Origin: Acidobacteriota bacterium
Lineage (GTDB): Bacteria; Acidobacteriota; Blastocatellia; RBC074
Length of the DNA: 64,000 nt
Direction of reading: 5' to 3'
Assembly: GCA_016196035.1 (NCBI GenBank)
Contig: JACPYM010000059.1
Location: forward strand, 52,528-116,527
Of the stretch, positions 5,065 through 49,298 are shown piece by piece; the stretch's first letter is position 1, and every line of letters starts with the position of its first letter. Position numbers and translations under genes: made by a program. Below the pieces are notes generated by a model. It did no database searches. It saw nothing but the letters and a program-made list of their open reading frames with translations, and was not told where the DNA came from.

Positions 5065-7674
5065 ATGATGATTCGCAAACATCGAAGATTAGCGCTGTGC
5101 ATAAGTACCCTGCCGCTGCTGATGTTCCTGACTTTTGGCACCAAAGCCAGACTGATACAGCAACCAACGCAAGCAGCGGCGCTTTCGCAACAAGCCTACA
5201 GAATCTTGCAACAAAACTGCTTCGGCTGTCACGGCGCGGCGCGCACGTCAGAGCTTGATCTACGCACGGCAGAAGGCATCCTTGCGGGCGGTGAAAATGG
5301 CAAAGTGATTGTCCCCGGCGATGCGCAAGCAAGCCGTTTGTTTCAATTCATCACGCAGCAGGAAAAGCCAACGATGCCGCCGGGCAAGAAGTTGAGCGAT
5401 GCCGACATCGAAGCGTTACGGCGTTGGATTGCCGCAGGCGCGCCGTTCGACGGCTTTGCGCCGATGGTGGCGGAAACAGCCAAAACAGAAAAGTTGCCGG
5501 AACGCCCGTTCACCGCAGCGGAACGCGGCTTCTGGGCATTTCAAGCACCAAAGCAAATCACACCACCGCGCGCCGCGCTTGCCAGTTGGAATCGCAATCC
5601 GCCGAATCCTATTGATGCGTTTCTGTTCGCCGCGATGAAAGCGAAAGGCGTGCAGCCTTCGCCACGCGCAGATCGCCGCACATTGATTCGCCGCGCGTAC
5701 CTTGATTTGACGGGCTTGCCGCCTGCGCCGGAAGAAGTAGAAGCGTTTGTGAATGATAAAGCGGCATCAGACGAAGCCGCTTACGAAAAGCTGATTGACC
5801 GTTTGCTTGCCAGTCCGCATTACGGCGAACGTTGGGCGCGCCATTGGCTTGATCTGGTGCGCTATGCTGATTCGGGCGGGTTTGAGTTTGATGTGGATCG
5901 GCCTGACGGCTGGCGCTATCGCGATTACGTCGTCAAGGCGTTCAATAACGACAAGCCTTACGATCAATTTATTCGTGAACAGTTGGCGGGCGATGAATAT
6001 GCACTGGATTCAGATGACGCGATGATTGCGACAGGTTTCCTGCGGCTCGGTCCCGAAGGCGGAGGCGGTGGCGAACGCGGACGGCAGGATGCGCTGGACG
6101 ATGTGATTACGACGAGTTCGCTGACCTTTATGGGGCTGACGGTGGGCTGTGCGCGCTGCCACGATCACAAGTTCGATCCGATTCGGCAAACGGATTTCTA
6201 TCGCATTCAAGCGGTGTTCGCGCCGACGCGTCCGGTTAATCATCCGCTGGTTGCAGCCGATGTCGTCGCCGCGCATCGCGCGGAAACGCAGCGCATCGAA
6301 GCGCAGCAACGACCGCTCAAGAAAGCCAAAGCCGAGCTTGAAGCGCCGTACTTAAAAATTCTTGTCGAAGAGTTTGTCAGCCGCTTGCCCGACTACATGC
6401 AAACTGCCTGGCGCACGCCGGATGACAAGCGCACACCGGGGCAGCGGCTTAATGTGCAACAAATTAAAAAGACGCTCGAAGATGATTCGCTCGCACAGAA
6501 ACTGACCGAGAAAGACATCGTCGCGCGGATGTCGGCGGTAGATAAACAAAAGCAGCAAGATTTAGTCGCGCAAATCAAAACGCTCGACAAACAAAAGCCG
6601 AAGCCATACGCAACCGCGCGCGCCATTGGTGAAGGTGGGCCAAATCCTGCGCCAACGTATTTCCTGCATCGTGGCAACTTCGATTCTAAAGGCCCCGCAA
6701 TGACGCCGGGCGTGTTGTCAATCGTGGGCGACTATGAATTCCCGGTGCCACCTGCCAATGCGAAATCAAGTTGGCGGCGGCGCGGCTTGGCCGAATGGCT
6801 GACGAACAAACAGAATCCGTTGACTGCGCGCGTAATGGTCAATCGGCTCTGGCAGCATCATTTTGGCGAAGGCATCGTGCGCACGCCCAGCAACTTCGGC
6901 AAGATGGGCGAATTACCTTCGCATCCTGAATTGCTGGATTGGCTGGCACTTGAATTTATGAATGCGGATTTCGGAATGCGGAATGCGGAATCCAAAACCA
7001 ATCCGCAATCGAAAGGCTGGAGCGTGAAGCAGATGCACCGCCTGATGATGACTTCGCAGGCTTATCAAATGGCGAGCAACGACATTGCCGCCAACGTGGT
7101 GCTTGATCCTGAGAACCGGTTGTTCTGGCGGATGCCGCGCGTGCGGCTCGAAGCTGAAATCATCCGTGATTCGATCTTGGCGGTGGCAGGCAATTTGGAT
7201 CGCACGTTGGGCGGCCCGTGCATTTATCCGTACATTGATCCGAAGCTGTTTCAATCGAGCACGAAACGCACGTGGCCGGGCAAGCCGGATGACGATCCGG
7301 CGACGTGGCGGCGCAGTTTGTACGTGTATTCCAAGCGCAGCATTCGCTATCCGTTGTTCGAGACGTTCGATCAACCGAACCTCATCAATTCGTGCGAACG
7401 CCGCAACCGCTCCACCATTGCGCCGCAAGCCTTGCTGCTGATGAATAACAGCTTTGTGTTGGTCGAAGCGCGGAAGTTTGCCGAACGCTTGCGCACGGAA
7501 GCGGGTGCGGATGTGCAACGCCAAGTCGAGCGCGCCTATCAATTGGCATTGGGCCGTGCGCCGAGCGAGTTTGAGCGCACGAAGTCCATCGCATTTATGC
7601 AAGGCAATCCGAATGGGTTGGCGGAATTTTGTCAGGCGTTATTCAACCTGAATGAGTTTGTATACTGGCAGTGA
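5065..7674 (+). CDS. PSCyt1 (planctomycete cytochrome c) / DUF1549 / DUF1553 (PSD1) domain protein
   Basis: N-terminal CxxCH 'CFGCHG' heme motif followed by DUF1549/DUF1553-type sequence; immediately upstream of DUF1501 partner. Confidence 0.8.
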   Translation: MMIRKHRRLALCISTLPLLMFLTFGTKARLIQQPTQAAALSQQAYRILQQNCFGCHGAARTSELDLRTAEGILAGGENGKVIVPGDAQASRLFQFITQQEKPTMPPGKKLSDADIEALRRWIAAGAPFDGFAPMVAETAKTEKLPERPFTAAERGFWAFQAPKQITPPRAALASWNRNPPNPIDAFLFAAMKAKGVQPSPRADRRTLIRRAYLDLTGLPPAPEEVEAFVNDKAASDEAAYEKLIDRLLASPHYGERWARHWLDLVRYADSGGFEFDVDRPDGWRYRDYVVKAFNNDKPYDQFIREQLAGDEYALDSDDAMIATGFLRLGPEGGGGGERGRQDALDDVITTSSLTFMGLTVGCARCHDHKFDPIRQTDFYRIQAVFAPTRPVNHPLVAADVVAAHRAETQRIEAQQRPLKKAKAELEAPYLKILVEEFVSRLPDYMQTAWRTPDDKRTPGQRLNVQQIKKTLEDDSLAQKLTEKDIVARMSAVDKQKQQDLVAQIKTLDKQKPKPYATARAIGEGGPNPAPTYFLHRGNFDSKGPAMTPGVLSIVGDYEFPVPPANAKSSWRRRGLAEWLTNKQNPLTARVMVNRLWQHHFGEGIVRTPSNFGKMGELPSHPELLDWLALEFMNADFGMRNAESKTNPQSKGWSVKQMHRLMMTSQAYQMASNDIAANVVLDPENRLFWRMPRVRLEAEIIRDSILAVAGNLDRTLGGPCIYPYIDPKLFQSSTKRTWPGKPDDDPATWRRSLYVYSKRSIRYPLFETFDQPNLINSCERRNRSTIAPQALLLMNNSFVLVEARKFAERLRTEAGADVQRQVERAYQLALGRAPSEFERTKSIAFMQGNPNGLAEFCQALFNLNEFVYWQ

Positions 7675-7689
7675 GCCGATGCGACTGAG

Positions 7690-7801
7690 AGGAGAGGAGA
7701 GAACGCGGAACACACGGAAATAACGGAAGACACAGAAAGATTCTTACGACTAGATTTTTCCGCTATTTCCGTTATTTCCGTGTGTTCCGCGTTCTCTCCT
7801 A
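7690..7801. repeat. Family C hairpin element (about 35-bp stem, ACGGAAATAACGGAA core), copy 1
   Basis: aggagagaacgcggaacacacggaaataacggaa ... ttccgttatttccgtgtgttccgcgttctctcct are reverse complements; related copy at 34628..34726. Confidence 0.7.
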
Positions 7802-13428: not shown

Positions 13429-13536
13429 CCCTGGGTACGCAGCGCTTCCAGCGTGCAGTTTCGGCGGCAGACGCCTTCCTGCCGGAAGGAAAAGGTCAAT
13501 TGCCGAGACTGCACGCTGGAAGCGCTGCGTACCCAG
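13429..13536. repeat. Family A palindromic element copy A1 (29-bp inverted arms CCTGGGTACGCAGCGCTTCCAGCGTGCAG)
   Basis: Perfect inverted arms flanking ~50-nt loop with inner CCTTCC..GGAAGG hairpin, immediately after transporter stop. Confidence 0.8.
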
Positions 13537-23558: not shown

Positions 23559-23584
23559 AGTGATCTCCCAGTCAATTGGGCCAA

Positions 23585-23690
23585 CCTGGGTACGTAGCGC
23601 TCAGCGTGCAGTCTCGGCATGAGATATTTTCCTTCCGGTAGGAAGGCGTCCGATGCCGAGACCGCACGCTGGAAGCGCTGCGTACCCAGG
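23585..23690. repeat. Family A palindromic element copy A2
   Basis: cctgggtacgtagcgctcagcgtgcag ... cgcacgctggaagcgctgcgtacccagg. Confidence 0.8.
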
Positions 23691-23700
23691 TTGACCCATC

Positions 23701-26799: not shown

Positions 26800-27078
26800 T
26801 CGGCTTTCACTTCGGTGTATGGAAAAACCGCGCAGCGGACGGTACCGCGCGCGTGAGCAAGCGGAGCCTGGGCGGTTCGGCCAACGGCGTAAACTTGACG
26901 CGCCGCTTGCTCACGCGCGCGGTACCGTCCCGGCCGCCGCGCCGCTTGCTCACGCGCGCGGTACCGTCCCGGCCTCACGCGCGCGGTACCGTCCCGGCCG
27001 CCGCGCCGCTTGCTCACGCGCGCGGTACCGTCCCGGCCGCCGCGCTCCCGTAAACGCAATTGCAAACCGGTCTAAGAG
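26800..27078. repeat. Family B element copy B1: 27-bp inverted arms (GGACGGTACCGCGCGCGTGAGCAAGCGG) with ~3.7 tandem copies of a 37-40-bp unit
   Basis: Tandem units 26901..27045 (cgccgcttgctcacgcgcgcggtaccgtcccggccgc); conserved termini tttcacttcggtgtatgg / cgtaaacgcaattgcaaaccggtctaag shared with B2, B3. Confidence 0.75.
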
Positions 27079-32490: not shown

Positions 32491-32614
32491 CCTGGGTACG
32501 CACCGCTTCCAGCGTGCAGGCTTGGCATAAGACCGGCTGCGGCTGAAAGGAAATCCCTGCGGCCTTCATCCGTCTCTCGCCAAATCTGCACGCTGGAAGC
32601 GCTGCGTACCCAGG
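32491..32614. repeat. Family A palindromic element copy A3
   Basis: cctgggtacgcaccgcttccagcgtgcagg ... ctgcacgctggaagcgctgcgtacccagg directly after transporter stop. Confidence 0.8.
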
Positions 32615-34337: not shown

Positions 34338-34389
34338 TTCCAAGCGCTAAATCAGAGCAATCAAGCTTGGTGCAGAACCGGGAGCGCTA

Positions 34390-34590
34390 GCGACTGGGTG
34401 TGGTCGAGAGTTCTTTCTTTGGTAGTGGCTCAAAGAGGAGAGGTCTGGCCGCAGATCAACGCTGGAAAACGCGGATCAGACCTATTAACCAATTGAATTG
34501 GTCTGCGTTGGTCGGCGTTGATCTGCGGCGTGGCTCTCTCCCCATTGAGCCACTACCCTTTCTTTTAGCGTTTACCCGGTCGCTATACCA
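34390..34590. repeat. ~200-bp imperfect palindrome (MITE-like), centre ccaattgaattgg
   Basis: Blocks ggtagtggctca/tgagccactacc, gccgcagatcaacgc/gcgttgatctgcggc, agcgactggg/cccggtcgct symmetric about 34496. Confidence 0.5.
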
Positions 34591-34627
34591 TACACGGGCA
34601 TAGGTTGAGCTTTTTCGGAGGGCAGAA

Positions 34628-34726
34628 GAGAGATTACGGAACTGACGGAAATAACGGAACAGACAGAAGTCTTTCAGGTTTTCTTTTCCGTGTGTTCCGT
34701 TATTTCCGTCTGTTCCGTAATCTCAA
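34628..34726. repeat. Family C hairpin element copy C2
   Basis: gagattacggaactgacggaaataacggaacagac ... ttccgtgtgttccgttatttccgtctgttccgtaatctc. Confidence 0.7.
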
Positions 34727-34840
34727 AAAAGTCCTGGCTGAAAAGCTCAATCTATGACCGTGCGCGGTATCGCGCTCCCGGTTCTGTACTTGCACTCGTT
34801 TCAAACCTTCAATCACAAACCTGCCAGAAAATTCCCGCCC

Positions 34841-34861
34841 GATGACTTAAGTCACTGCCAA
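34841..34861. promoter_or_regulatory. Candidate operator: GATGACTTAAGTCACTGCCAA (perfect 12-bp palindrome TGACTTAAGTCA) ~90 bp upstream of ric
   Basis: 23-nt stretch identical to 38256..38278 upstream of flavoprotein-Rieske operon. Confidence 0.45.
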
Positions 34862-34940
34862 GCCGTGCCCTGCCGCCTACACTGCACGCATCGTCAAACT
34901 ATCTCAATACTTCTTGGTGAATCACTTGCAGGAGGCATTT

Positions 34941-36665: not shown

Positions 36666-36840
36666 TAGAGCGGTTTGCAGTTGCGTTTACGGGAGTCAGT
36701 TGACATTGGGACAGTACCGCGCGCGTGAGCAAGTGGCGCGTCAAGCTTGCCCCCTTGGCTGAATTGCCAAAGCGCCGCTTGCTCACGCGCGCGGTACTGT
36801 CCCGCTGCGCGGTTTTCCCGTACACCGTAGTGAAAACCGC
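36666..36840. repeat. Family B element copy B2 (inverted orientation, no tandem expansion)
   Basis: Termini are reverse complements of B1 termini; internal gacagtaccgcgcgcgtgagcaagtgg / ccgcttgctcacgcgcgcggtactgtc inverted arms. Confidence 0.7.
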
Positions 36841-38113: not shown

Positions 38114-38257
38114 CCTGGGAGCGCAGGCATCCCGCCTGCCGTCAAACAAAGCCGCGTAGCATCCTTATCTTGACGAAAAGGGTAAGGATGCTGCGCGCTT
38201 TTCTTATTTGCAGGCGGGACGCCTGCGCCCCCAGGAAATGCAAATAAATTTCGCACC

Positions 38258-40947: not shown

Positions 40948-41032
40948 CCGGGGACTAGCGGCTAGGGACTAGGGGCTGGAATTAAGCCACTGTCGCTAGC
41001 CCCTAGCCCCTGGCCTCTAACCCCTAAAAATT
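40948..41032. repeat. Intergenic CTAGGGG/CCCCTAG repeat hairpin (Rieske-cyt b spacer)
   Basis: gggactagcggctagggactaggggctgg ... gctagcccctagcccctggcc. Confidence 0.5.
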
Positions 41033-42349: not shown

Positions 42350-42436
42350 AGATGGGGGGCAGGGGGGCCAGGGGCCAGTGAATTCAAGCCCCAGCCCCCA
42401 GTCCCTAGACCCCAGCCCCCAAGATCGGAGGTTTTA
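42350..42436. repeat. Intergenic G-tract/C-tract hairpin (cyt b-cyt c spacer)
   Basis: ggggggcaggggggccaggggccag ... ccccagcccccagtccctagaccccagccccc. Confidence 0.5.
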
Positions 42437-43660: not shown

Positions 43661-43803
43661 CCTGGGTTCGCACGCTTCCCAGCGTGCTGTAAAAAAGTCG
43701 CGCAGCGTTCCGAATAAATTCAATTGGGTCGCACGCGATTTAGGGAAAAGGAAGGCTGCGCCGCTTCTTTCATAGCACGCAAGGATGCGTGCGTACCCAG
43801 GGA
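43661..43803. repeat. Family A palindromic element, degenerate copy A4
   Basis: cctgggttcgcacgcttcccagcgtgctg ... gcgtgcgtacccaggg. Confidence 0.6.
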
Positions 43804-43878
43804 AAGGCTGCAACTCCGCGCCGCTCACGGGTTGAAGCTTGACCATCAACCACCGTTCCCATTTGGGGAGGAACCACC

Positions 43879-45744
43879 ATGGAATTACAAACAACAAAAC
43901 TTGATCGCAAGAAAATGAAATGGCTCGGCGCAGGAGCGGTCTGCGTCGCGCTGCTCGGCTTTGCTTTGACCAGTTGCGGCAAGCAACCAAGCACTGCTGA
44001 ATTGGGCGGCACTGCGGAAGCTGCTGCGGCCACTTATGTCGCGCCGGGCGACACCGATGAATATTACCTGTTCTATTCGGGCGGCCATTCGGGCAACGTC
44101 TATGTTGCGGGCGTGCCTTCGATGCGGCACATCTCGACGATTCCCGTGTTTGCGCCTTACCCGGCGACGGGGTATGGCTTTGACGAAGAGTCGAAGAAGA
44201 TGCTGGGCGGGTTCACATGGGGCGACGTGCACCACCCGGCCATCAGCGAGACCAAGGGCGATTACGACGGGCGTTGGCTCTTCGTGAATGACAACGCCAA
44301 CAATCGGCTGGCGCGCATTGACCTGCGCGATTTCAAAACCAAACAGATCCTGGGGCCGATGCCGAATATCTCCGGCTATCACGGCGGTTCGTTCGTGACG
44401 CCTAATACGGAATACGTGTTGGCGGCCTCGCGCTTCTCGGTGCCGTTGCCGAAAGGGACCGTCGAACCGATTGAAAGTTATGCGACGAAATACCACGGGG
44501 TCGTGGCGGGCGTAAAAATTGATCCGACCTCGGGCGAGATGAGCGTCGGTTTTCAAATCCTGATGCCGCCCTTCAATTTTGATTTAGGCGACGCGGGCAA
44601 AGGGCCGAGCGAGGGCTGGGCCTTCTGGACGTGCTACAACTCAGAACGCGCGACCGGCAAGCTCGAAGTGACTTCGACACAAAAAGACCGCGACTACATT
44701 GCAGCGGTGAATTGGAAAGAAGCTGAGAAAGCCGTCGCCGCAGGCAAAGCCAAAATGATCAGCGGCGTGCCGGTGCTTGATCCCAAAGAAGTGCCGGGCA
44801 TCGTTTATTTCGTGCCGTGCAGCAAATCGCCGCACGGCGTGGATGTCACGCCCGATGGCAAATACTTCATCGGCAGCGGCAAGCTGCAATCCATCACGAC
44901 GGCGTTCAACGTCGAGAAGATGCTGACCACGATTCAGAACAAAGATTTCACCGGCAACGAAGACGGCATCCCGGTGCTGAATTACGACAAGGTCAAAGAC
45001 GCCGAAGTCAACGTCGGCCTCGGCCCGCTGCATACGCAATTCGACAATGAGGGCAATGCGTATACCAGCCTCTTTGTCGAGAGCGCCGTGGCGAAATGGA
45101 AGCTTGGCACGTGGGAAGTGCTCGACAAGATTCCAGTTACGTACAACATCGGCCACCTCTGCGCGGCGGAAGGCGACACAGTTCATCCCGCTGGCAAATA
45201 TCTGGTCGCGCTCAATAAGCTTTCGCACGGACGCCACCTGAACGTCGGCCCCTCGCAGCCGGAATGCTCGCAACTCATCAACATCGGCGGCGAAAAGATG
45301 AAGCTGCTCTACGACGCCTTCACCGAACCCGAACCGCATTACGCCCAGATGATCAAGGCCGACAAGCTGAAACCCTTCGAGGTTTATCCCAAAGAAAGCA
45401 ACAAGAACCCGAACGCGATCTGGGACGTGAAGGACGCCAGCGTGGTGCGCAGCGGCAACAACGTCACGGTCAAGCTGGTCGCGGTGCGCAGCAGCTTCGA
45501 GCCCAACAAGATCGAGGTCAACAAAGGTGACACAGTGACGATTCACATCACCAACATCGAACAGACCACCGATGAGCTGCATGGCTTTGGGCTGCTCGAT
45601 TACAACATCAACGTGGTGATAGACCCCGGCGAGACCAAGACGATCAAGTTCGTGGCCGATAAACCGGGTGTTTTCGCCTACTATTGCACCAACTTCTGCT
45701 CGGCGTTGCATCAAGAGATGCAGGGCTATTTGTTGGTGAAGTAG
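43879..45744 (+). CDS. nosZ: Nitrous oxide reductase NosZ (clade II/Sec-dependent, lipoprotein-type signal)
   Basis: C-terminal CuA motif 'CTNFCSALHQEMQGY'; 'LTSC' lipobox rather than Tat motif; size ~620 aa. Confidence 0.9.
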   Translation: MELQTTKLDRKKMKWLGAGAVCVALLGFALTSCGKQPSTAELGGTAEAAAATYVAPGDTDEYYLFYSGGHSGNVYVAGVPSMRHISTIPVFAPYPATGYGFDEESKKMLGGFTWGDVHHPAISETKGDYDGRWLFVNDNANNRLARIDLRDFKTKQILGPMPNISGYHGGSFVTPNTEYVLAASRFSVPLPKGTVEPIESYATKYHGVVAGVKIDPTSGEMSVGFQILMPPFNFDLGDAGKGPSEGWAFWTCYNSERATGKLEVTSTQKDRDYIAAVNWKEAEKAVAAGKAKMISGVPVLDPKEVPGIVYFVPCSKSPHGVDVTPDGKYFIGSGKLQSITTAFNVEKMLTTIQNKDFTGNEDGIPVLNYDKVKDAEVNVGLGPLHTQFDNEGNAYTSLFVESAVAKWKLGTWEVLDKIPVTYNIGHLCAAEGDTVHPAGKYLVALNKLSHGRHLNVGPSQPECSQLINIGGEKMKLLYDAFTEPEPHYAQMIKADKLKPFEVYPKESNKNPNAIWDVKDASVVRSGNNVTVKLVAVRSSFEPNKIEVNKGDTVTIHITNIEQTTDELHGFGLLDYNINVVIDPGETKTIKFVADKPGVFAYYCTNFCSALHQEMQGYLLVK

Positions 45745-45750
45745 TGAGGA

Positions 45751-45884
45751 GACCTCAGACCTCAGACTTCAGACCACAGACCTCAGACCTGTCTTGGATC
45801 GGCGGCCACAGGCGAATTGAGATCGTAGGTCTGAAGTCTGAAGTCTGAGGTCTGAGGTCTGAAGTCTGAGGTCTGAGGTCTGTG
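45751..45884. repeat. Heptamer-repeat hairpin: (CAGACCT)n arm, ~35-nt loop, (AGGTCTG/AAGTCTG)n arm ending at nosB-like start codon
   Basis: gacctcagacctcagacttcagaccacagacctcagacctg ... aggtctgaagtctgaagtctgaggtctgaggtctgaagtctgaggtctgaggtctg. Confidence 0.8.
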
Positions 45885-46517
45885 ATGAAAAGCTGGCTCG
45901 ACAACGCGAACCATTTTTTTGAACTGCCGCTCACGCTGCGCAGCCGCGTGCTGATTCTGGTGGGTGTAGTGCTGTTGACGCCGGTCTTTCTGTTCCCCTT
46001 GTGGAATATGACCTTCAAGTCGAATCAGTATCTCGACGGACTGACGCTCAACATTTACGCCTATCAACTCAAAGGCGGCATGACGCCGAACCGCGATGAT
46101 TTGCGCGAGATCAACTCGCTCAATCATTACATCGGTATGCGTCCGCTGTTGGAAAGCGATTTCGGCGAATTCGTCTGGATTCCCTTTGTCATCGGGGTGC
46201 TGGGCGTGCTGGCGTTGCGCGCTCTGGTCATCGGCAAGATGGCCGGGCTGGTGGATGTCTTTGTGATCTTCACCTATTTCGGGCTGTTCTCGTTCTGGGG
46301 CTTTTACAACAAGCTCTATGCGTATGGACACCATCTTGATCCGACGGCGGCGATCAAGGTGCCGCCGTTCACCCCGCCGCTGCTGGGGACGCAAGTCGTC
46401 GGCAACTTTACGGTGTCGAGCTATCCGGGCGTCGCGTCGTTTGCGCTGGTGTCGTTTGCCGTGTTGTTGCTGGCGGCCATCTTTCTGTCGCGCAAGCAGA
46501 CGAACGAGGCGGCGTGA
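45885..46517 (+). CDS. Polytopic membrane protein, NosB-like (clade II nos accessory)
   Basis: 4-5 TM helices, position directly downstream of nosZ and 4-bp overlap with nosD; assignment by synteny. Confidence 0.5.
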   Translation: MKSWLDNANHFFELPLTLRSRVLILVGVVLLTPVFLFPLWNMTFKSNQYLDGLTLNIYAYQLKGGMTPNRDDLREINSLNHYIGMRPLLESDFGEFVWIPFVIGVLGVLALRALVIGKMAGLVDVFVIFTYFGLFSFWGFYNKLYAYGHHLDPTAAIKVPPFTPPLLGTQVVGNFTVSSYPGVASFALVSFAVLLLAAIFLSRKQTNEAA

Positions 46518-47914
46518 TGTGGCGCAATGTCATCGGGCTGGTTTTGCTGGGAACACTGAGCGCGTTGGCAGTGCGGGCCGACACCTTCACGGTTGGCCTG
46601 CCGCCCGCGCGCTTTCAAGCTTTGACTGACGCCCTTATTGCCGCTCAGCCCGGCGATATTGTGCAAGTTCAACCCGGCACTTACACCGGACAATTCCGGC
46701 TCGACAAACCGCTGACCTTGGTTGGCATTGGCAAACCCGTGTTGCACGGTACAGGCCAGGGCAGCGTCGTAATCATCACGGCTGATCATTGCACCGTGCG
46801 CGGGTTCGTTATCGAACACAGCGGCGGTGATCTGACCGCCGAAGATTCCGGCCTGCTGCTCAAAGCGGATGACAATCTGATCGAAGCGAACGAATTGCGC
46901 GATGTGCTTTACGGCATTTACCTATACCACGCCAGCCGCAACACGCTGCGCGGCAATACGGTGCGCGGGCGGCGCGAACTTGAATTGGGCGAACGTGGCG
47001 CGGCGCTGCACCTCTGGGATTCGCCCGACAACATCATCGAAGACAACACCATCGGTGATGCGCGCGATGGGCTGTACATCCAGGCTTGTTCGGGCACGCT
47101 GGTGCGGCATAACCGTGTGCGCGACGTGCGCTACGGCCTGCATTACATGAACTCGGACGACAATCGGTTTGAGGACAATCTGTTTGAACACAACGTGGCG
47201 GGCGCGGCGATTATGTATTCGCGGCGCATCACGCTGCGACGCAATGCCTTCGCACACAATCGCGGCTTCAGTTCATTCGGCATTCTCTTTCAGGATTGTG
47301 ACGAGATCGTGGCCGAAGAGAATTTCATCATTGATAACGCGACGGGCATTTTTATCGAGGCCCTGCGTAAGAGCAGCTTTCGCCGCAACGTGATCGCCGA
47401 GAATGATCTGGCCTTGCAAATGTTCAGCAACGCCGATCAAACGCTGTTTGCCGCGAATAACTTCGTCGAAAATCTCAGTCCATTGCAGGTCGTCGGCAAA
47501 CGCACCAACGCTGTTTGGCAGGTCAACGGGCAGGGCAATTATTGGAGCGATTACGCCGGTTACGACCTGGACGGCAACGGCATCGGCGATGTGCCGCACA
47601 AGGTGCAAAACGTTTTTGAATACCTCGAAGGCAACTATCCGCGCTTGCGGCTTTACCTGAACAGCCCCGCCGCGCAGGCGTTGGCTGCGGCTGAACAGAG
47701 CTTCCCGATTCTCAAAGGCGCAAACGAAGCCGATACCGCGCCGTTGATGCAGGCCGTCAAGTTGCAGTTCCCGTTGGAAGTGGTGCCGCTGCAAACCGCG
47801 CCACGTCGCGCGACGCAATGGCTGCTGAGTCTCTGCTCATTGCTTAGCGCCAGTGGAGCGTTGTTTGTCATGTGGAAACATCGCCAGCCGCGCGGCGCCA
47901 AGGCAGGAGCCTGA
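46514..47914 (+). CDS. nosD: Periplasmic copper-binding right-handed beta-helix protein NosD
   Basis: Signal peptide, parallel beta-helix repeats ('NxIxxN' ladders), operon position before nosF. Confidence 0.85.
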   Translation: MMWRNVIGLVLLGTLSALAVRADTFTVGLPPARFQALTDALIAAQPGDIVQVQPGTYTGQFRLDKPLTLVGIGKPVLHGTGQGSVVIITADHCTVRGFVIEHSGGDLTAEDSGLLLKADDNLIEANELRDVLYGIYLYHASRNTLRGNTVRGRRELELGERGAALHLWDSPDNIIEDNTIGDARDGLYIQACSGTLVRHNRVRDVRYGLHYMNSDDNRFEDNLFEHNVAGAAIMYSRRITLRRNAFAHNRGFSSFGILFQDCDEIVAEENFIIDNATGIFIEALRKSSFRRNVIAENDLALQMFSNADQTLFAANNFVENLSPLQVVGKRTNAVWQVNGQGNYWSDYAGYDLDGNGIGDVPHKVQNVFEYLEGNYPRLRLYLNSPAAQALAAAEQSFPILKGANEADTAPLMQAVKLQFPLEVVPLQTAPRRATQWLLSLCSLLSASGALFVMWKHRQPRGAKAGA

Positions 47915-47915
47915 A

Positions 47916-48836
47916 ATGAGTATTCACGTAAACCATCTGACCCGCCGGTTTGGCGAACACGTTGCCGTCAACGATGTCTCGTTTGAGATCAAACCGGGCG
48001 AAACCTTTGCGCTGCTCGGGCCGAATGGCAGCGGCAAAACCACCACGTTGAAATGCATCGTGGGCTTGCTCGAACCGACGGCGGGACAAATCCAGATCAA
48101 CCAACTCGATGTTTGGAAAGACCCGCATCAGGCGCGGCGGTTATTCAGTTACTTGCCGCAGCGCGTCGCGTTCCCCGACGGCTTGACGGCGCGCGAAGTG
48201 CTGCAATTTTATGCTGATCTGCGCCAGCTCGCGCCGCAACGCGTAGACACAATCCTCAGCGGCGAACGCTTCCACTTCAACGGCTTCACCGACAAACCGG
48301 TCGGCAAGTTTTCGGGCGGCATGGTGCAACGCCTGGGCCTCGCCGTCGCCTGCCTGCCCGATGCGCCCGTGCTGTTGCTGGATGAGCCGACGGTGAGTCT
48401 TGATCCCGAAGGCGCGCTACGCTTCCGCGCCTTTCTGCAAGCGCTCAAAGCAGAAGGCAAGACGATTGTGTTCACTTCGCACGTGCTGGCCGATGTCGAA
48501 CAACTGGCCGACCGCGTGGCGATTCTGGTGGGCGGCAAACTGGTCGCCATCGAATCCATCACCGCTTTGCGCGAAGGGCTGATGCGCAGCAGCCGCATGC
48601 GCGTCGTCTTGCGCGCGCCGCAGCCATCCTTGCAAACGGCCGCGCTGACGGCAGGCGCGAGCGAAGTTTTGGTTGAAGGCGAATCCTTGCTGATTGTTTC
48701 GCGCCCGGAAGACCGGTTGGAGATTTTGCGGGCGCTCGAAAACAACGGCGGGCACGTCGAGCGCTTTGCCACTGAAGAGCTTTCGCTGGAAGACATCTAT
48801 CTGCGCTACATCGAGGAATCAGCAACACACGTGTGA
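47916..48836 (+). CDS. nosF: ABC transporter ATP-binding protein NosF
   Basis: Walker A 'GPNGSGKTT', signature 'FSGGMVQRLGLA', Walker B 'LLLDEPT'. Confidence 0.85.
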   Translation: MSIHVNHLTRRFGEHVAVNDVSFEIKPGETFALLGPNGSGKTTTLKCIVGLLEPTAGQIQINQLDVWKDPHQARRLFSYLPQRVAFPDGLTAREVLQFYADLRQLAPQRVDTILSGERFHFNGFTDKPVGKFSGGMVQRLGLAVACLPDAPVLLLDEPTVSLDPEGALRFRAFLQALKAEGKTIVFTSHVLADVEQLADRVAILVGGKLVAIESITALREGLMRSSRMRVVLRAPQPSLQTAALTAGASEVLVEGESLLIVSRPEDRLEILRALENNGGHVERFATEELSLEDIYLRYIEESATHV

Positions 48837-48839
48837 ATT

Positions 48840-49298
48840 ATGCCGAGACCGTTTGAGAGAAAACACTGCGTCATTCTTTTTGCCGCAGCCCTCTGGCTGC
48901 TCGCGGCTTGCCAAAGCCACAAACTGGAACCCGCCGCCCTGTCGCCTGAAGATATGTGCACCGATTGCAAGATGGCGATTTCAGAAAAGCAATTCGCCGC
49001 GCAATACCTGACCAAAGATGGCGAGGCCGTTAAATTCGATGACCTCGGCTGTCTGGCGCGTTATCTGAAAAGTCACCCGCAACAACGCGCCGAAAGCGCG
49101 GCCTTTTTCGTGATGGATTACGAAACGAAACAATGGCTCAACGCCGAGTCCGCGTTTTACGTCAACTCCGATAAATTCCAAACGCCAATGCGTGGCGGCT
49201 TTGCGGCCTTCAGTACACGTCAACGCGCCGAGGCCGCTGCTGCTGCCAAACAAGGCCGCTTGTTCACTTGGCAGGCAGTGCTGACCAACGCCAAATAG
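48840..49298 (+). CDS. nosL: Copper chaperone lipoprotein NosL
   Basis: Lipobox 'LLAAC', 'CTDCKMAIS' Cu-binding region, ~150 aa, follows nosF with 3-bp gap. Confidence 0.8.
   Translation: MPRPFERKHCVILFAAALWLLAACQSHKLEPAALSPEDMCTDCKMAISEKQFAAQYLTKDGEAVKFDDLGCLARYLKSHPQQRAESAAFFVMDYETKQWLNAESAFYVNSDKFQTPMRGGFAAFSTRQRAEAAAAAKQGRLFTWQAVLTNAK

Follow-up and report, generated by a model that had tools for sequence, protein, structure and literature searches.

Paired heptamer arrays form a long hairpin between nosZ and a nosB-like gene in an Acidobacteriota bacterium

Repetitive extragenic palindromic (REP) sequences and bacterial interspersed mosaic elements (BIMEs) form stem-loops in 3' untranslated regions (UTRs) or between cistrons, where they shield the message upstream of them from 3' exonucleases; REPs are copies of a single palindrome that a RAYT transposase has probably dispersed. 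The REP between malE and malF yields an abundant periplasmic protein alongside scarce membrane partners, and it is said, in work by Newbury and colleagues from 1987, to stabilize the upstream message. The short tandemly repeated repetitive (STRR) sequences of cyanobacteria have units common to hundreds of loci per genome and occur mostly as direct arrays, not as hairpin pairs. Here we describe a hairpin whose two arms are arrays of one 7-nt unit and its reverse complement, and which stands between nosZ, the gene for nitrous-oxide reductase, and a nosB-like gene in a 64,000-nucleotide stretch (hereafter the window) of an Acidobacteriota bacterium of the Blastocatellia (assembly GCA_016196035.1, contig JACPYM010000059.1, positions 52,528 to 116,527).

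Arrays of heptamers are known from several bacterial groups. In Xanthomonas, 70 to 75 of about 185 GGGAATC arrays are convergent pairs, one per strand, that are able to form stem-loops, and from one related species to another the arrays stay flanked by the same genes as their length and sequence vary (Rehm et al. 2015, PMC4692102). Nostoc carries GGGGA(C/T)T arrays, including one of 26 units that sits in the pec operon, in its pecE-pecF interval, and the function of the heptamer arrays of both genera is given as unknown (PMC4692102). Heptamer simple sequence repeats (SSRs) are over-represented in many bacterial genomes, according to Mrazek (2007) as cited in PMC4692102. In Beggiatoaceae, Cyanobacteria, and Bacteroidetes, TAACTGA arrays precede start codons (MacGregor 2015, PMC4679880); those of Beggiatoaceae typically end 1 nt before the start codon, and a translational (post-transcriptional) role has been proposed for them (PMC4679880). 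In the literature we found no such elements described in Acidobacteria or in nos clusters. The reduction of N2O by clade II NosZ is the only biological sink for this greenhouse gas, and the expression of nos clusters is poorly known; if the hairpin sets the ratio of NosZ to its accessory proteins, it would be part of nos control in the Acidobacteria of soil and groundwater.

The heptamer hairpin and the start of the nosB-like gene

The spacer between nosZ and the nosB-like gene is 137 nt long and is occupied by the hairpin, a structure that is both real and striking. The consensus units of its two arms are exact reverse complements of one another, and the arms lie 36 nt apart (Table 1). Both are heptamer SSRs in the sense of at least three head-to-tail copies of a 7-nt unit beyond chance (5.9 and 8.0 copies), and the lag-7 score of the spacer, 26 of 28, was equaled by none of 200 shuffles. 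The 14-mer AGGTCTGAGGTCTG, sought with at most 2 mismatches, matches 12 times in the window against 0.12 expected, and every match falls within the two arrays, on the minus strand in 5 cases and on the plus strand in 7. The right arm may alternatively be described as 2.7 copies of a 21-nt block of three units at 97% (Tandem Repeats Finder), which indicates a recent multi-unit duplication.

In the best register, 54 nt separate the paired arms, with units 1 and 2 of the right arm (45827-45842) also lying outside the main stem, and the stem consists of 26 uninterrupted pairs with 12 to 13 more beyond its single mismatch. Variant unit 3 of the left arm (ACTT) stands opposite variant unit 6 of the right arm (AAGT), and the register is therefore fixed by these matched variants; registers shifted by 7 nt are still 88 to 91% paired. 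RNA folding of positions 45735-45900 gave a minimum free energy of -92.8 kcal/mol, compared with -56.2 +/- 4.0 for dinucleotide shuffles (z = -9.1; 0 of 200 shuffles matched it), and the corresponding DNA fold is -48.4 kcal/mol (z = -9.8). RNase III sites need about 20 bp or more of near-uninterrupted double-stranded RNA, a length that the stem provides. A first-pass annotation, made from the sequence alone, had described about five and about eight complementary units after the nosZ stop, a stem of more than 35 bp, and a repeat running up to the start codon, and had named RNA folding as a check. Tandem Repeats Finder and the sequence itself bear out its coordinates and counts, the stem is as long as it claimed, and the right array ends at 45882, the first base of a possible GTG start.

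The stem begins 6 nt past the nosZ stop codon (TAG at 45742-45744, followed by an in-frame TGA at 45745-45747) and ends 3 nt ahead of the ATG of the nosB-like gene. That ATG (45885-45887) directly follows the alternative GTG (45882-45884); the 210-aa product from the ATG is exactly the one called in the NCBI and Logan assemblies, and an in-frame TGA at 45867-45869 leaves no start possible farther upstream. The Shine-Dalgarno (SD)-like motif of the gene, GAGG, has a partition-function probability of being unpaired of 0.0, and the predicted cost of opening the stretch from SD to ATG is 13.6 kcal/mol, rising to 20-24 kcal/mol for a ribosome-sized footprint. The first-pass annotation had also held that the downstream ribosome-binding region would be sequestered, and these folding predictions agree. 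Forcing the SD open does not melt the stem, which moves over by one or two 7-nt registers instead, and the start codon itself is about 64% unpaired in the predicted ensemble. Past the stem the sequence reads GTGATGAAAAGC, with neither a U-tract nor a T-run, so the hairpin is not a canonical intrinsic terminator; a scan of the plus strand of the spacer (45745-45884) returned no terminator-like and no sigma-70-like promoter site.

Other candidate identities for the element were examined and set aside. It is not a CRISPR array, as its units are contiguous and lack spacers, nor a coding repeat or small open reading frame (ORF), as TGA is present in all three frames of the right arm. Two minus-strand ORFs (45755-46018 and 45783-46394) were likewise rejected; they read through the repeat into the complement of the nosB-like gene. 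An Rfam scan at E <= 1 returned no family above its gathering threshold for the hairpin, and the sub-threshold matches were animal miRNA precursor models only (42 bits vs 57; 41 vs 90), such as any long hairpin gives.

Table 1. Positions of the hairpin, its neighbors, and other repeat elements, and the state of the nosZ-downstream spacer in related loci (positions are those of the window unless a locus is named)
Feature	Position	Strand	Description
Left arm	45750-45790	+	5.9 tandem units AGACCTC (CAGACCT in the other phase), 88% matches; Tandem Repeats Finder
Left-arm variant units			unit 3 AGACTTC; unit 4 AGACCAC; read from the sequence
Central non-repeat segment, apical region of the hairpin	45791-45826	+	
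Right arm	45827-45882	+	8.0 tandem units AGGTCTG/AAGTCTG, 91% matches; Tandem Repeats Finder
Main stem, best register	45750-45788 with 45843-45881		39 nt, 38 complementary (97%), one mismatch
SD-like GAGG	45875-45878	+	only SD-like motif; from the last repeat unit, 6 nt upstream of the ATG
nosZ, Sec-dependent (clade II) nitrous-oxide reductase	43879-45744	+	Pfam nos_propeller, Cupredoxin_1
nosB-like gene (named by position)	45885-46517	+	210 aa, about four hydrophobic segments
Heptamer-array hairpin, Rieske/cytochrome b spacer	40951-41026	+	GGGACTA/GCGGCTA vs CTAGCCC; -48.5 kcal/mol, z = -4.9
G-rich/C-rich heptamer arrays, cytochrome b/cytochrome c spacer	42354-42421	+	GGGGCCA vs CCCCAGC; weaker hairpin
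REP-like long palindrome (CCTGGGT...ACCCAGG family), cytochrome c/nosZ spacer	43661-43805	+	starts 1 nt after the stop codon
REP-like CCTGGG family sites	13431-13536, 23577-23698, 32491-32614, 38114-38235, 43661-43805		
GC-rich palindromic family (GGACGGTACCGCGCGCGTGAGCAAGCGG)	26837-27045 and 36708-36803		
Nonamer hairpins	7695-7800 and 34630-34724		arms of the 9-nt unit ACGGAA(A/C)nn
Hairpins of the spacer 34344-34913	34421-34557 enclosing 34448-34529, plus 34630-34724		10-nt period in 34448-34529
Non-acidobacterial tandem-unit hairpins	L056 3583-3697 and 6480-6566; L073 12174-12287; L077 183-270; L016 6680-6830		
L006			unit AGTGGTT; hairpin z = -7.7
L007			unit CAGCnGT; hairpin z = -5.5
L009			unit CATTGGC; hairpin z = -3.4
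L010			unit GTCATTG; hairpin z = -4.2
L011			unit CACGCTT; hairpin z = -11.8
L086			unit CAATTGn; forms a hairpin, inverted repeats visible
L088			unit TAAGACC/GGTCTTG; hairpin z = -4.2
L087			nonamer array (CACGGGnnA) in the nosZ-downstream spacer; strong hairpin
L089-L094, L095, L103			long unique palindromes without a 7-nt period; L092/93 hairpin strong
L090			REP-like CCTGGG palindrome; strong hairpin
L110/L111 (94% neighbor-protein identity)			same AGGTCTG unit abutting the same GTGATG
L112 (93%)			unrelated non-repetitive 26-bp palindrome; -50.4 kcal/mol, z = -8.7
L113 (94%)			REP-like CCTGGGAGCGCAGGCATCC element (CCTGGG family), also in the window at 38114 and 43783
L108/L109 (95%)			no hairpin; 153-aa F420H2-quinone-reductase-like gene in the gap

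Hairpins in relatives, across the window, and in independent assemblies

We fetched 80 clade II nosZ loci from species-representative genomes and 22 metagenome loci through the neighbor protein encoded downstream, and we added closer relatives through protein search and contig look-ups, ranking them by neighbor-protein identity. Nearly every Blastocatellia-type relative has a strong hairpin in its nosZ-downstream spacer, and the sequences that make it up are unrelated. Significant 7-nt periodicity in this spacer (at most 2 of 200 shuffles as high) was found in the window and in seven relatives, each of the seven with a different heptamer unit; in other relatives the same position holds a nonamer array, unique palindromes, or REP-like elements (Table 1). 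On crude gene maps drawn for 12 relatives, 32 spacers reached 60 nt or more and 10 of them were strong (z <= -5), 6 of these 10 being nosZ-downstream, with 4 strong among the 25 others. The first 140 nt past the stop codon, taken over 76 clade II nosZ loci, showed slightly more structure than their shuffles: the median z was -1.5 and 21% fell below -3, with the window the most extreme. Only weak structure was found in one relative, L008 (z = -0.65). What is conserved is the order stop codon, a few nucleotides, hairpin, SD, and start codon.

Two comparisons bear on how the arms change. Between the window (TCAGACC/GGTCTGA) and L088, a C>A difference in the left arm is answered by the complementary G>T in the right arm, a change that is coordinated across both arrays; L088 also has one array expanded without its partner. 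In the relatives at 94% neighbor-protein identity that share the AGGTCTG unit, the third unit from the start codon has AGG where the window has AAG, and the contigs break inside the array. This unit occurs nowhere else in the 64-kb window beyond the nosZ-nosB locus, and among the 107 fetched loci it was found only in other assemblies of that locus (the single metagenome scan queried the neighbor protein, not the repeat pattern); it was later seen at the same locus in the 94% relative.

The repeat is not an assembly artifact: that possibility was rejected on the agreement of two independent metagenome-assembled genome (MAG) assemblies and the match of three further ones. The neighbor protein is recorded in two MAGs named "Acidobacteria bacterium" at NCBI, and a contig of one of them (GCA_016179065.1) differs from the window by 2 mismatches in 19,331 bp and has an identical repeat. 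In Logan assemblies of SRR12113389, SRR12113414, and SRR12113415, the nosZ and nosB genes are identical to those of the window and both flanks and the unit variants are confirmed, with the contigs ending inside the left or the right array. Such ends arise where arrays are longer than k=31 and their arms reverse-complementary; being the behavior of a k=31 de Bruijn graph, they give no evidence for variation. All five assemblies that cover the repeat come from one site or population, two of them spanning it and three covering it in part, and copy numbers are equal in the two and agree in the three wherever these overlap. Look-ups by exact protein led to this population alone. Contig ends of Logan loci L001-L003, L005, L110, and L111 fall inside the heptamer arrays on both sides. 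In metagenome assemblies made from short reads, heptamer repeats of this kind will systematically separate nosZ from the accessory genes.

Within the window, where a hairpin in a spacer of at least 50 nt on a crude gene map was called strong at z <= -7, by our reading 10 of 13 strong hairpins begin 1 to 21 nt after an upstream stop codon; both convergent spacers are occupied and 1 of 5 divergent spacers is. The hairpins are of heptamer, nonamer, and REP-like types and fall into at least four unrelated families, and all four spacers from the Rieske gene to nosB hold one. The weaker hairpin at 42354-42421 has z = -1.5 against dinucleotide shuffles and -2.8 against mononucleotide shuffles. The REP-like family, which starts with CCTGGG(T/A)(A/G)CGCA, ends with its complement, and is represented by CCTGGGTACGC..., is present at five or more sites, its palindromes usually beginning 1 to 12 nt after a stop codon. 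The GC-rich palindrome is itself tandemly multiplied at 26898-27045 (periods 25, 39, and 64). Units are shared between the two nonamer hairpins, which are very stable at -70.7 and -62.7 kcal/mol (z about -11). The 570-nt divergent spacer 34344-34913, with three hairpins, is the only divergent spacer of the window with any. An array of 4.6 GAATGCG units with a short inverted partner lies at 6954-7002, inside an 870-aa ORF (5065-7674), in what we judge by eye to be a DUF1553/PSD1-like C-terminal region, and it would be an insertion into coding sequence.

Similar arrays lie beyond the close relatives. In another acidobacterial MAG (L028, 7848-7949), the nosZ stop codon is followed by a direct array, (GGGACTA)x10-(GCGGCTA)x2, without a complementary arm; these are also the units of the window hairpin in the Rieske/cytochrome b spacer, so some units are common to different genomes and positions. 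MAGs of Salinivenus, Gemmatimonadota, and "Ca. Coneutiohabitans" also have tandem-unit hairpins, of periods 6, 7, and 8, in their nos regions; in two cases, a hexamer in L016 and an octamer in L056, the hairpin immediately follows nosZ, and the architecture is thus not confined to Acidobacteria.

The nosZ product matches NCBIfam TIGR04246 with 905 bits (cutoff 625), and its closest counterparts among species representatives are from Blastocatellia and Pyrinomonadaceae MAGs at 82 to 88% identity. Upstream lie genes for an Fe-S flavoprotein, a Rieske protein, cytochrome b, and a c-type cytochrome; downstream of the hairpin, the nosB-like gene is followed at 46514-49298 by NosD, an ABC ATPase (NosF-like), and NosL, with no recognizable NosY permease between NosF and NosL in that interval, and the 210-aa membrane protein is the sole membrane component of the cluster. 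This protein is annotated as hypothetical, and its homologs are labeled "copper chaperone NosL" by JGI, a mislabel. The name nosB-like in the first-pass annotation holds as far as position directly after a clade II nosZ and membrane topology go, both of which fit NosB; no Pfam or NCBIfam profile matches the protein. In most relatives (L086, L087, L089-L094) the NosB-like protein has an N-terminal extension of about 22 to 25 aa, for products of 228 to 235 aa. The extension is absent in the window, L088, and L110-L112, where the hairpin or repeat extends as far as the conserved (G)TGATGAAAA start region. In L108 (1484-3004) and also in L109, cytochrome b is fused to the C-terminal third of NosZ (a 348-aa ORF), which implies a deletion of about 3.3 kb that removed the cytochrome c gene and most of nosZ; this arrangement appears both in an ENA scaffold and in a Logan contig and is probably real.

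Candidate roles of the nosZ-nosB hairpin

The reading that we favor, with a confidence that we would put at about even, is that the hairpin is a REP-like RNA decay barrier or processing site and maybe a partial attenuator, which here would also occlude the nosB SD until relieved by a ribosome terminating at the nosZ stop. Unlike a REP, it appears from its composition to be built from a locally generated heptamer SSR and not from a dispersed palindrome. Each RNA-level effect is one that we infer from the structure, position, and statistics of the hairpin, its same-spacer counterparts in relatives, and the abundance of such elements. The nos genes would be transcribed on the plus strand, and the spacer RNA would fold into a duplex of about 39 bp. 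The stem would block 3'-to-5' exonucleases, and so long a duplex would be a likely RNase III substrate; we propose that, through this block together with probable cleavage, the nosZ segment would outlive the nosB-D-F-L segment. Some polymerases may terminate or pause at the stem, and in the window strain the buried GAGG would further lower translation of the downstream membrane protein. Because the stem leaves no more than about 10 nt between the stop and start codons, termination of a ribosome on nosZ would transiently open exactly those stem-base pairs that hold the GAGG. On balance, periplasmic NosZ would be plentiful and its accessory proteins scarce. The arms would grow by replication slippage, and their complementarity would be kept by selection or by hairpin-templated correction.

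The retention of a hairpin while its sequence and type are replaced, the hugging of stop codons, and the avoidance of divergent, promoter-bearing spacers all suggest the behavior of REP-type elements in 3' UTRs and between cistrons. In Nitrosophilus labii, the one clade II organism with pertinent data, RNA-seq found low coverage between nosZ and nosB, which were called separate transcript units (PMC11539149). The first-pass annotation had proposed an intra-operon attenuator or mRNA-processing site that sets the stoichiometry of NosZ and its accessory proteins, and this role is plausible and gains indirect support from the recurrence of a strong hairpin at the same spacer despite sequence turnover. 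As a device specific to nos it does not stand, because 14 of the window's 31 spacers have hairpins at z <= -7. That count also weighs against our favored reading as a whole, as do several other observations. With nearly half of the spacers carrying giant hairpins, occupancy could reflect a high rate of insertion or genesis together with tolerance; a strand test of RNA folding energy favored the plus strand in 9 of 15 spacers, a mixed result that shows no consistent advantage for the sense strand and is uninformative on selection at the RNA level; and the pairs of the stem are almost all Watson-Crick, as would equally be expected of a palindrome acting at the DNA level. The 95% relative (L108/L109) lacks a hairpin, though its nosZ has been destroyed by the fusion with cytochrome b. 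Burial of the ribosome-binding site is limited to the window strain and the 94% relative: in L006, L007, L009, L010, L011, L088, and L112 the SD (AGGAG, GAGG) lies outside the stem, so burial is not a conserved feature. The missing U-tract and the absence of a terminator-like call at the spacer also count against the favored reading.

A possible alternative, to which we give a substantial minority share of belief, is that the hairpin is a neutral or selfish by-product, in which polymerase slippage makes the arrays, template switching creates and homogenizes the palindromic pairs, and the products, as REP-type palindromes do, build up wherever they are tolerated and have no regulatory role; the intercistronic spacer would tolerate such an insert because it folds back and leaves the stop and start codons adjacent. 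The crowding of strong hairpins from unrelated families in the window and the lack of strand asymmetry speak for it, and unrelated elements occupy the spacer even among relatives at 93 to 95%, which resembles insertion and replacement more than conservation. Arrays have expanded on one side only in L088 and L028, heptamer SSRs are over-represented in many bacteria whatever the gene context (PMC4692102), and about 900 kb of related loci hold 18 lag-7 arrays, far above the numbers at the other lags that are not multiples of three (2 at lag 4, 4 at lag 5, 5 at lag 8, 0 at lag 10, and 1 at lag 11). Neutrality fits less well with the finding that, among spacers of at least 60 nt in relatives, the nosZ-downstream one is filled far more frequently than the rest, with hairpins that begin within a few nucleotides of stop codons, and with the complementary unit change in both arms between the window and L088; moreover, however it arose, a duplex this long (about 39 bp) in an mRNA must have some physical effect. 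We also entertain, as a speculative and rather doubtful extension, that nosZ and other abundant cistrons of Blastocatellia-type acidobacteria carry at their 3' ends a structural RNA that is "self-renewing", in which slippage would expand the arms, hairpin-templated correction would copy changes from one arm to the other, and sliding by 7-nt registers would give downstream translation a graded setting able to evolve. Slippage with arm-to-arm correction would leave the stem near-perfect while its sequence drifts freely. Were this so, these regulatory hairpins would be built and maintained differently from dispersed REP elements, and the over-representation of heptamers in many bacterial phyla could be explained.

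The remaining explanations are all unlikely, in decreasing order as we take them up. A translational device, in which synthesis of NosB depends on the ribosome terminating at nosZ to unzip the stem at its base, or on a slide of the hairpin by a single register of 7 nt, would suit the permanently paired GAGG, its cost of opening and its re-registering when forced, and a stem base (45750-45756 with 45875-45881) within reach of a ribosome at the stop codon; the 94% relative retains the same unit against the same GTGATG, and in a Beggiatoa-type genome the commonest heptamer arrays are those stopping 1 nt short of a start codon, with a translational role proposed there (PMC4679880). It must be set against the seven relatives with an SD outside the stem and against a start codon that is mostly unpaired. 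More improbable still is a full terminator that leaves nosZ and the upstream cytochrome genes on one transcript and nosB-D-F-L under a promoter of their own: the Nitrosophilus transcript units would agree with it, and the long U-less hairpins between convergent genes of the window (32491-32614 and 13431-13536) may serve as terminators, whereas at 45745-45884 the T-run, the terminator-like call, and a sigma-70-like promoter are all absent, only the 36-nt apical segment leaves room for a promoter, and similar hairpins lie between the Rieske, cytochrome b, and cytochrome c genes, which need co-expression. The first-pass annotation had further suggested a phase-variable number of units, and a variable number tandem repeat (VNTR) that switches or tunes nos accessory expression between cells by unit number seems very improbable to us and mechanistically weak. 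Tandem 7-nt units are prone to slippage, a 21-nt block has duplicated in the right arm, and the 94% relative differs in at least one unit variant; yet the array lies outside any ORF and any recognizable promoter spacer, the spacing of SD to ATG is unaffected by copy number because the terminal unit itself supplies the GAGG, and the full and partial assemblies, from their one population, agree. Across relatives the arrays do change over evolutionary time, as expected of any SSR. Least credible of all is an element acting at the DNA level as a cruciform, a slipped-strand structure, or a set of sites for a protein that reads 7-nt steps. The strength of the single-stranded DNA fold would favor it, as would the resemblance of the neighboring G-rich arrays to G-quadruplex-forming GGGNNTN repeats (PMC4692102) and the binding of one heptamer each by CspB-type proteins, as cited in PMC4679880; the unit AGGTCTG, however, lacks a G3 tract, the unit differs in every relative, and no candidate binding protein is known. 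The separation of the arms by 36 to 54 nt would also disfavor cruciform extrusion.

One spacer thus holds, in different lineages, heptamer arrays with differing units, a nonamer array, unique palindromes, and REP-like elements. Such a natural series could be used to ask if a stable hairpin of whatever kind suffices downstream of an abundant cistron, and for what reason bacteria favor 7-nt repeats.

Comparison with known systems

The nosZ-nosB element resembles the convergent pairs of Xanthomonas in that two arrays of one unit, on opposite strands, lie close together in an intergenic spacer. It departs from both the Xanthomonas and the Nostoc arrays, which use one G-rich unit family at about 180 loci and have been studied as G-quadruplex formers: AGGTCTG has no run of three G's and is confined to a single locus in the 64-kb window, outside the pattern of a GGGNNTN family spread over many loci. 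The units GGGACTA and GGGGCCA of the neighboring hairpins do have G tracts. With the cyanobacterial STRR sequences the element shares heptanucleotide tandem arrays in non-coding DNA and an unknown function (PMC4692102), and the window units GGGACTA and CCCCAGC are one or two bases from the STRR-type CCCCAGT; AGGTCTG, in contrast, is private to its locus in the window and among the 107 loci, and its host is an acidobacterium, not a cyanobacterium. Like the TAACTGA arrays, the right arm ends a few nucleotides from a start codon and its unit places a stop codon in all frames. Those arrays are direct and predicted to be unstructured (one inverted case in 170), whereas this one is the arm of a hairpin.

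As an imperfect palindrome that forms a stable stem-loop between co-directional nos genes, the element belongs with REP sequences in form, and the parallel with malE-malF extends to the gene products, a periplasmic enzyme (NosZ) against membrane and assembly proteins (NosB/D/F/L). As with REPs, different elements are interchangeable at one site, the CCTGGG family holding the nosZ-nosB spacer in L113; unlike a REP, the element is a private tandem repeat, about twice as long, with no second copy in 64 kb. An intrinsic terminator would likewise have a G+C-containing stem-loop directly after a stop codon, but the U-tract that would be expected within 0 to 2 nt is absent, and the stem is about 39 bp compared with the usual 5 to 12 bp. 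Paired heptamer arrays are already known in Xanthomonas and in cyanobacteria, and the nosZ-nosB hairpin adds to this functionally unexplained kind; what distinguishes it is a private unit that is not G-rich, an unusually long and perfect stem, and a natural series of interchangeable hairpins at one spacer.

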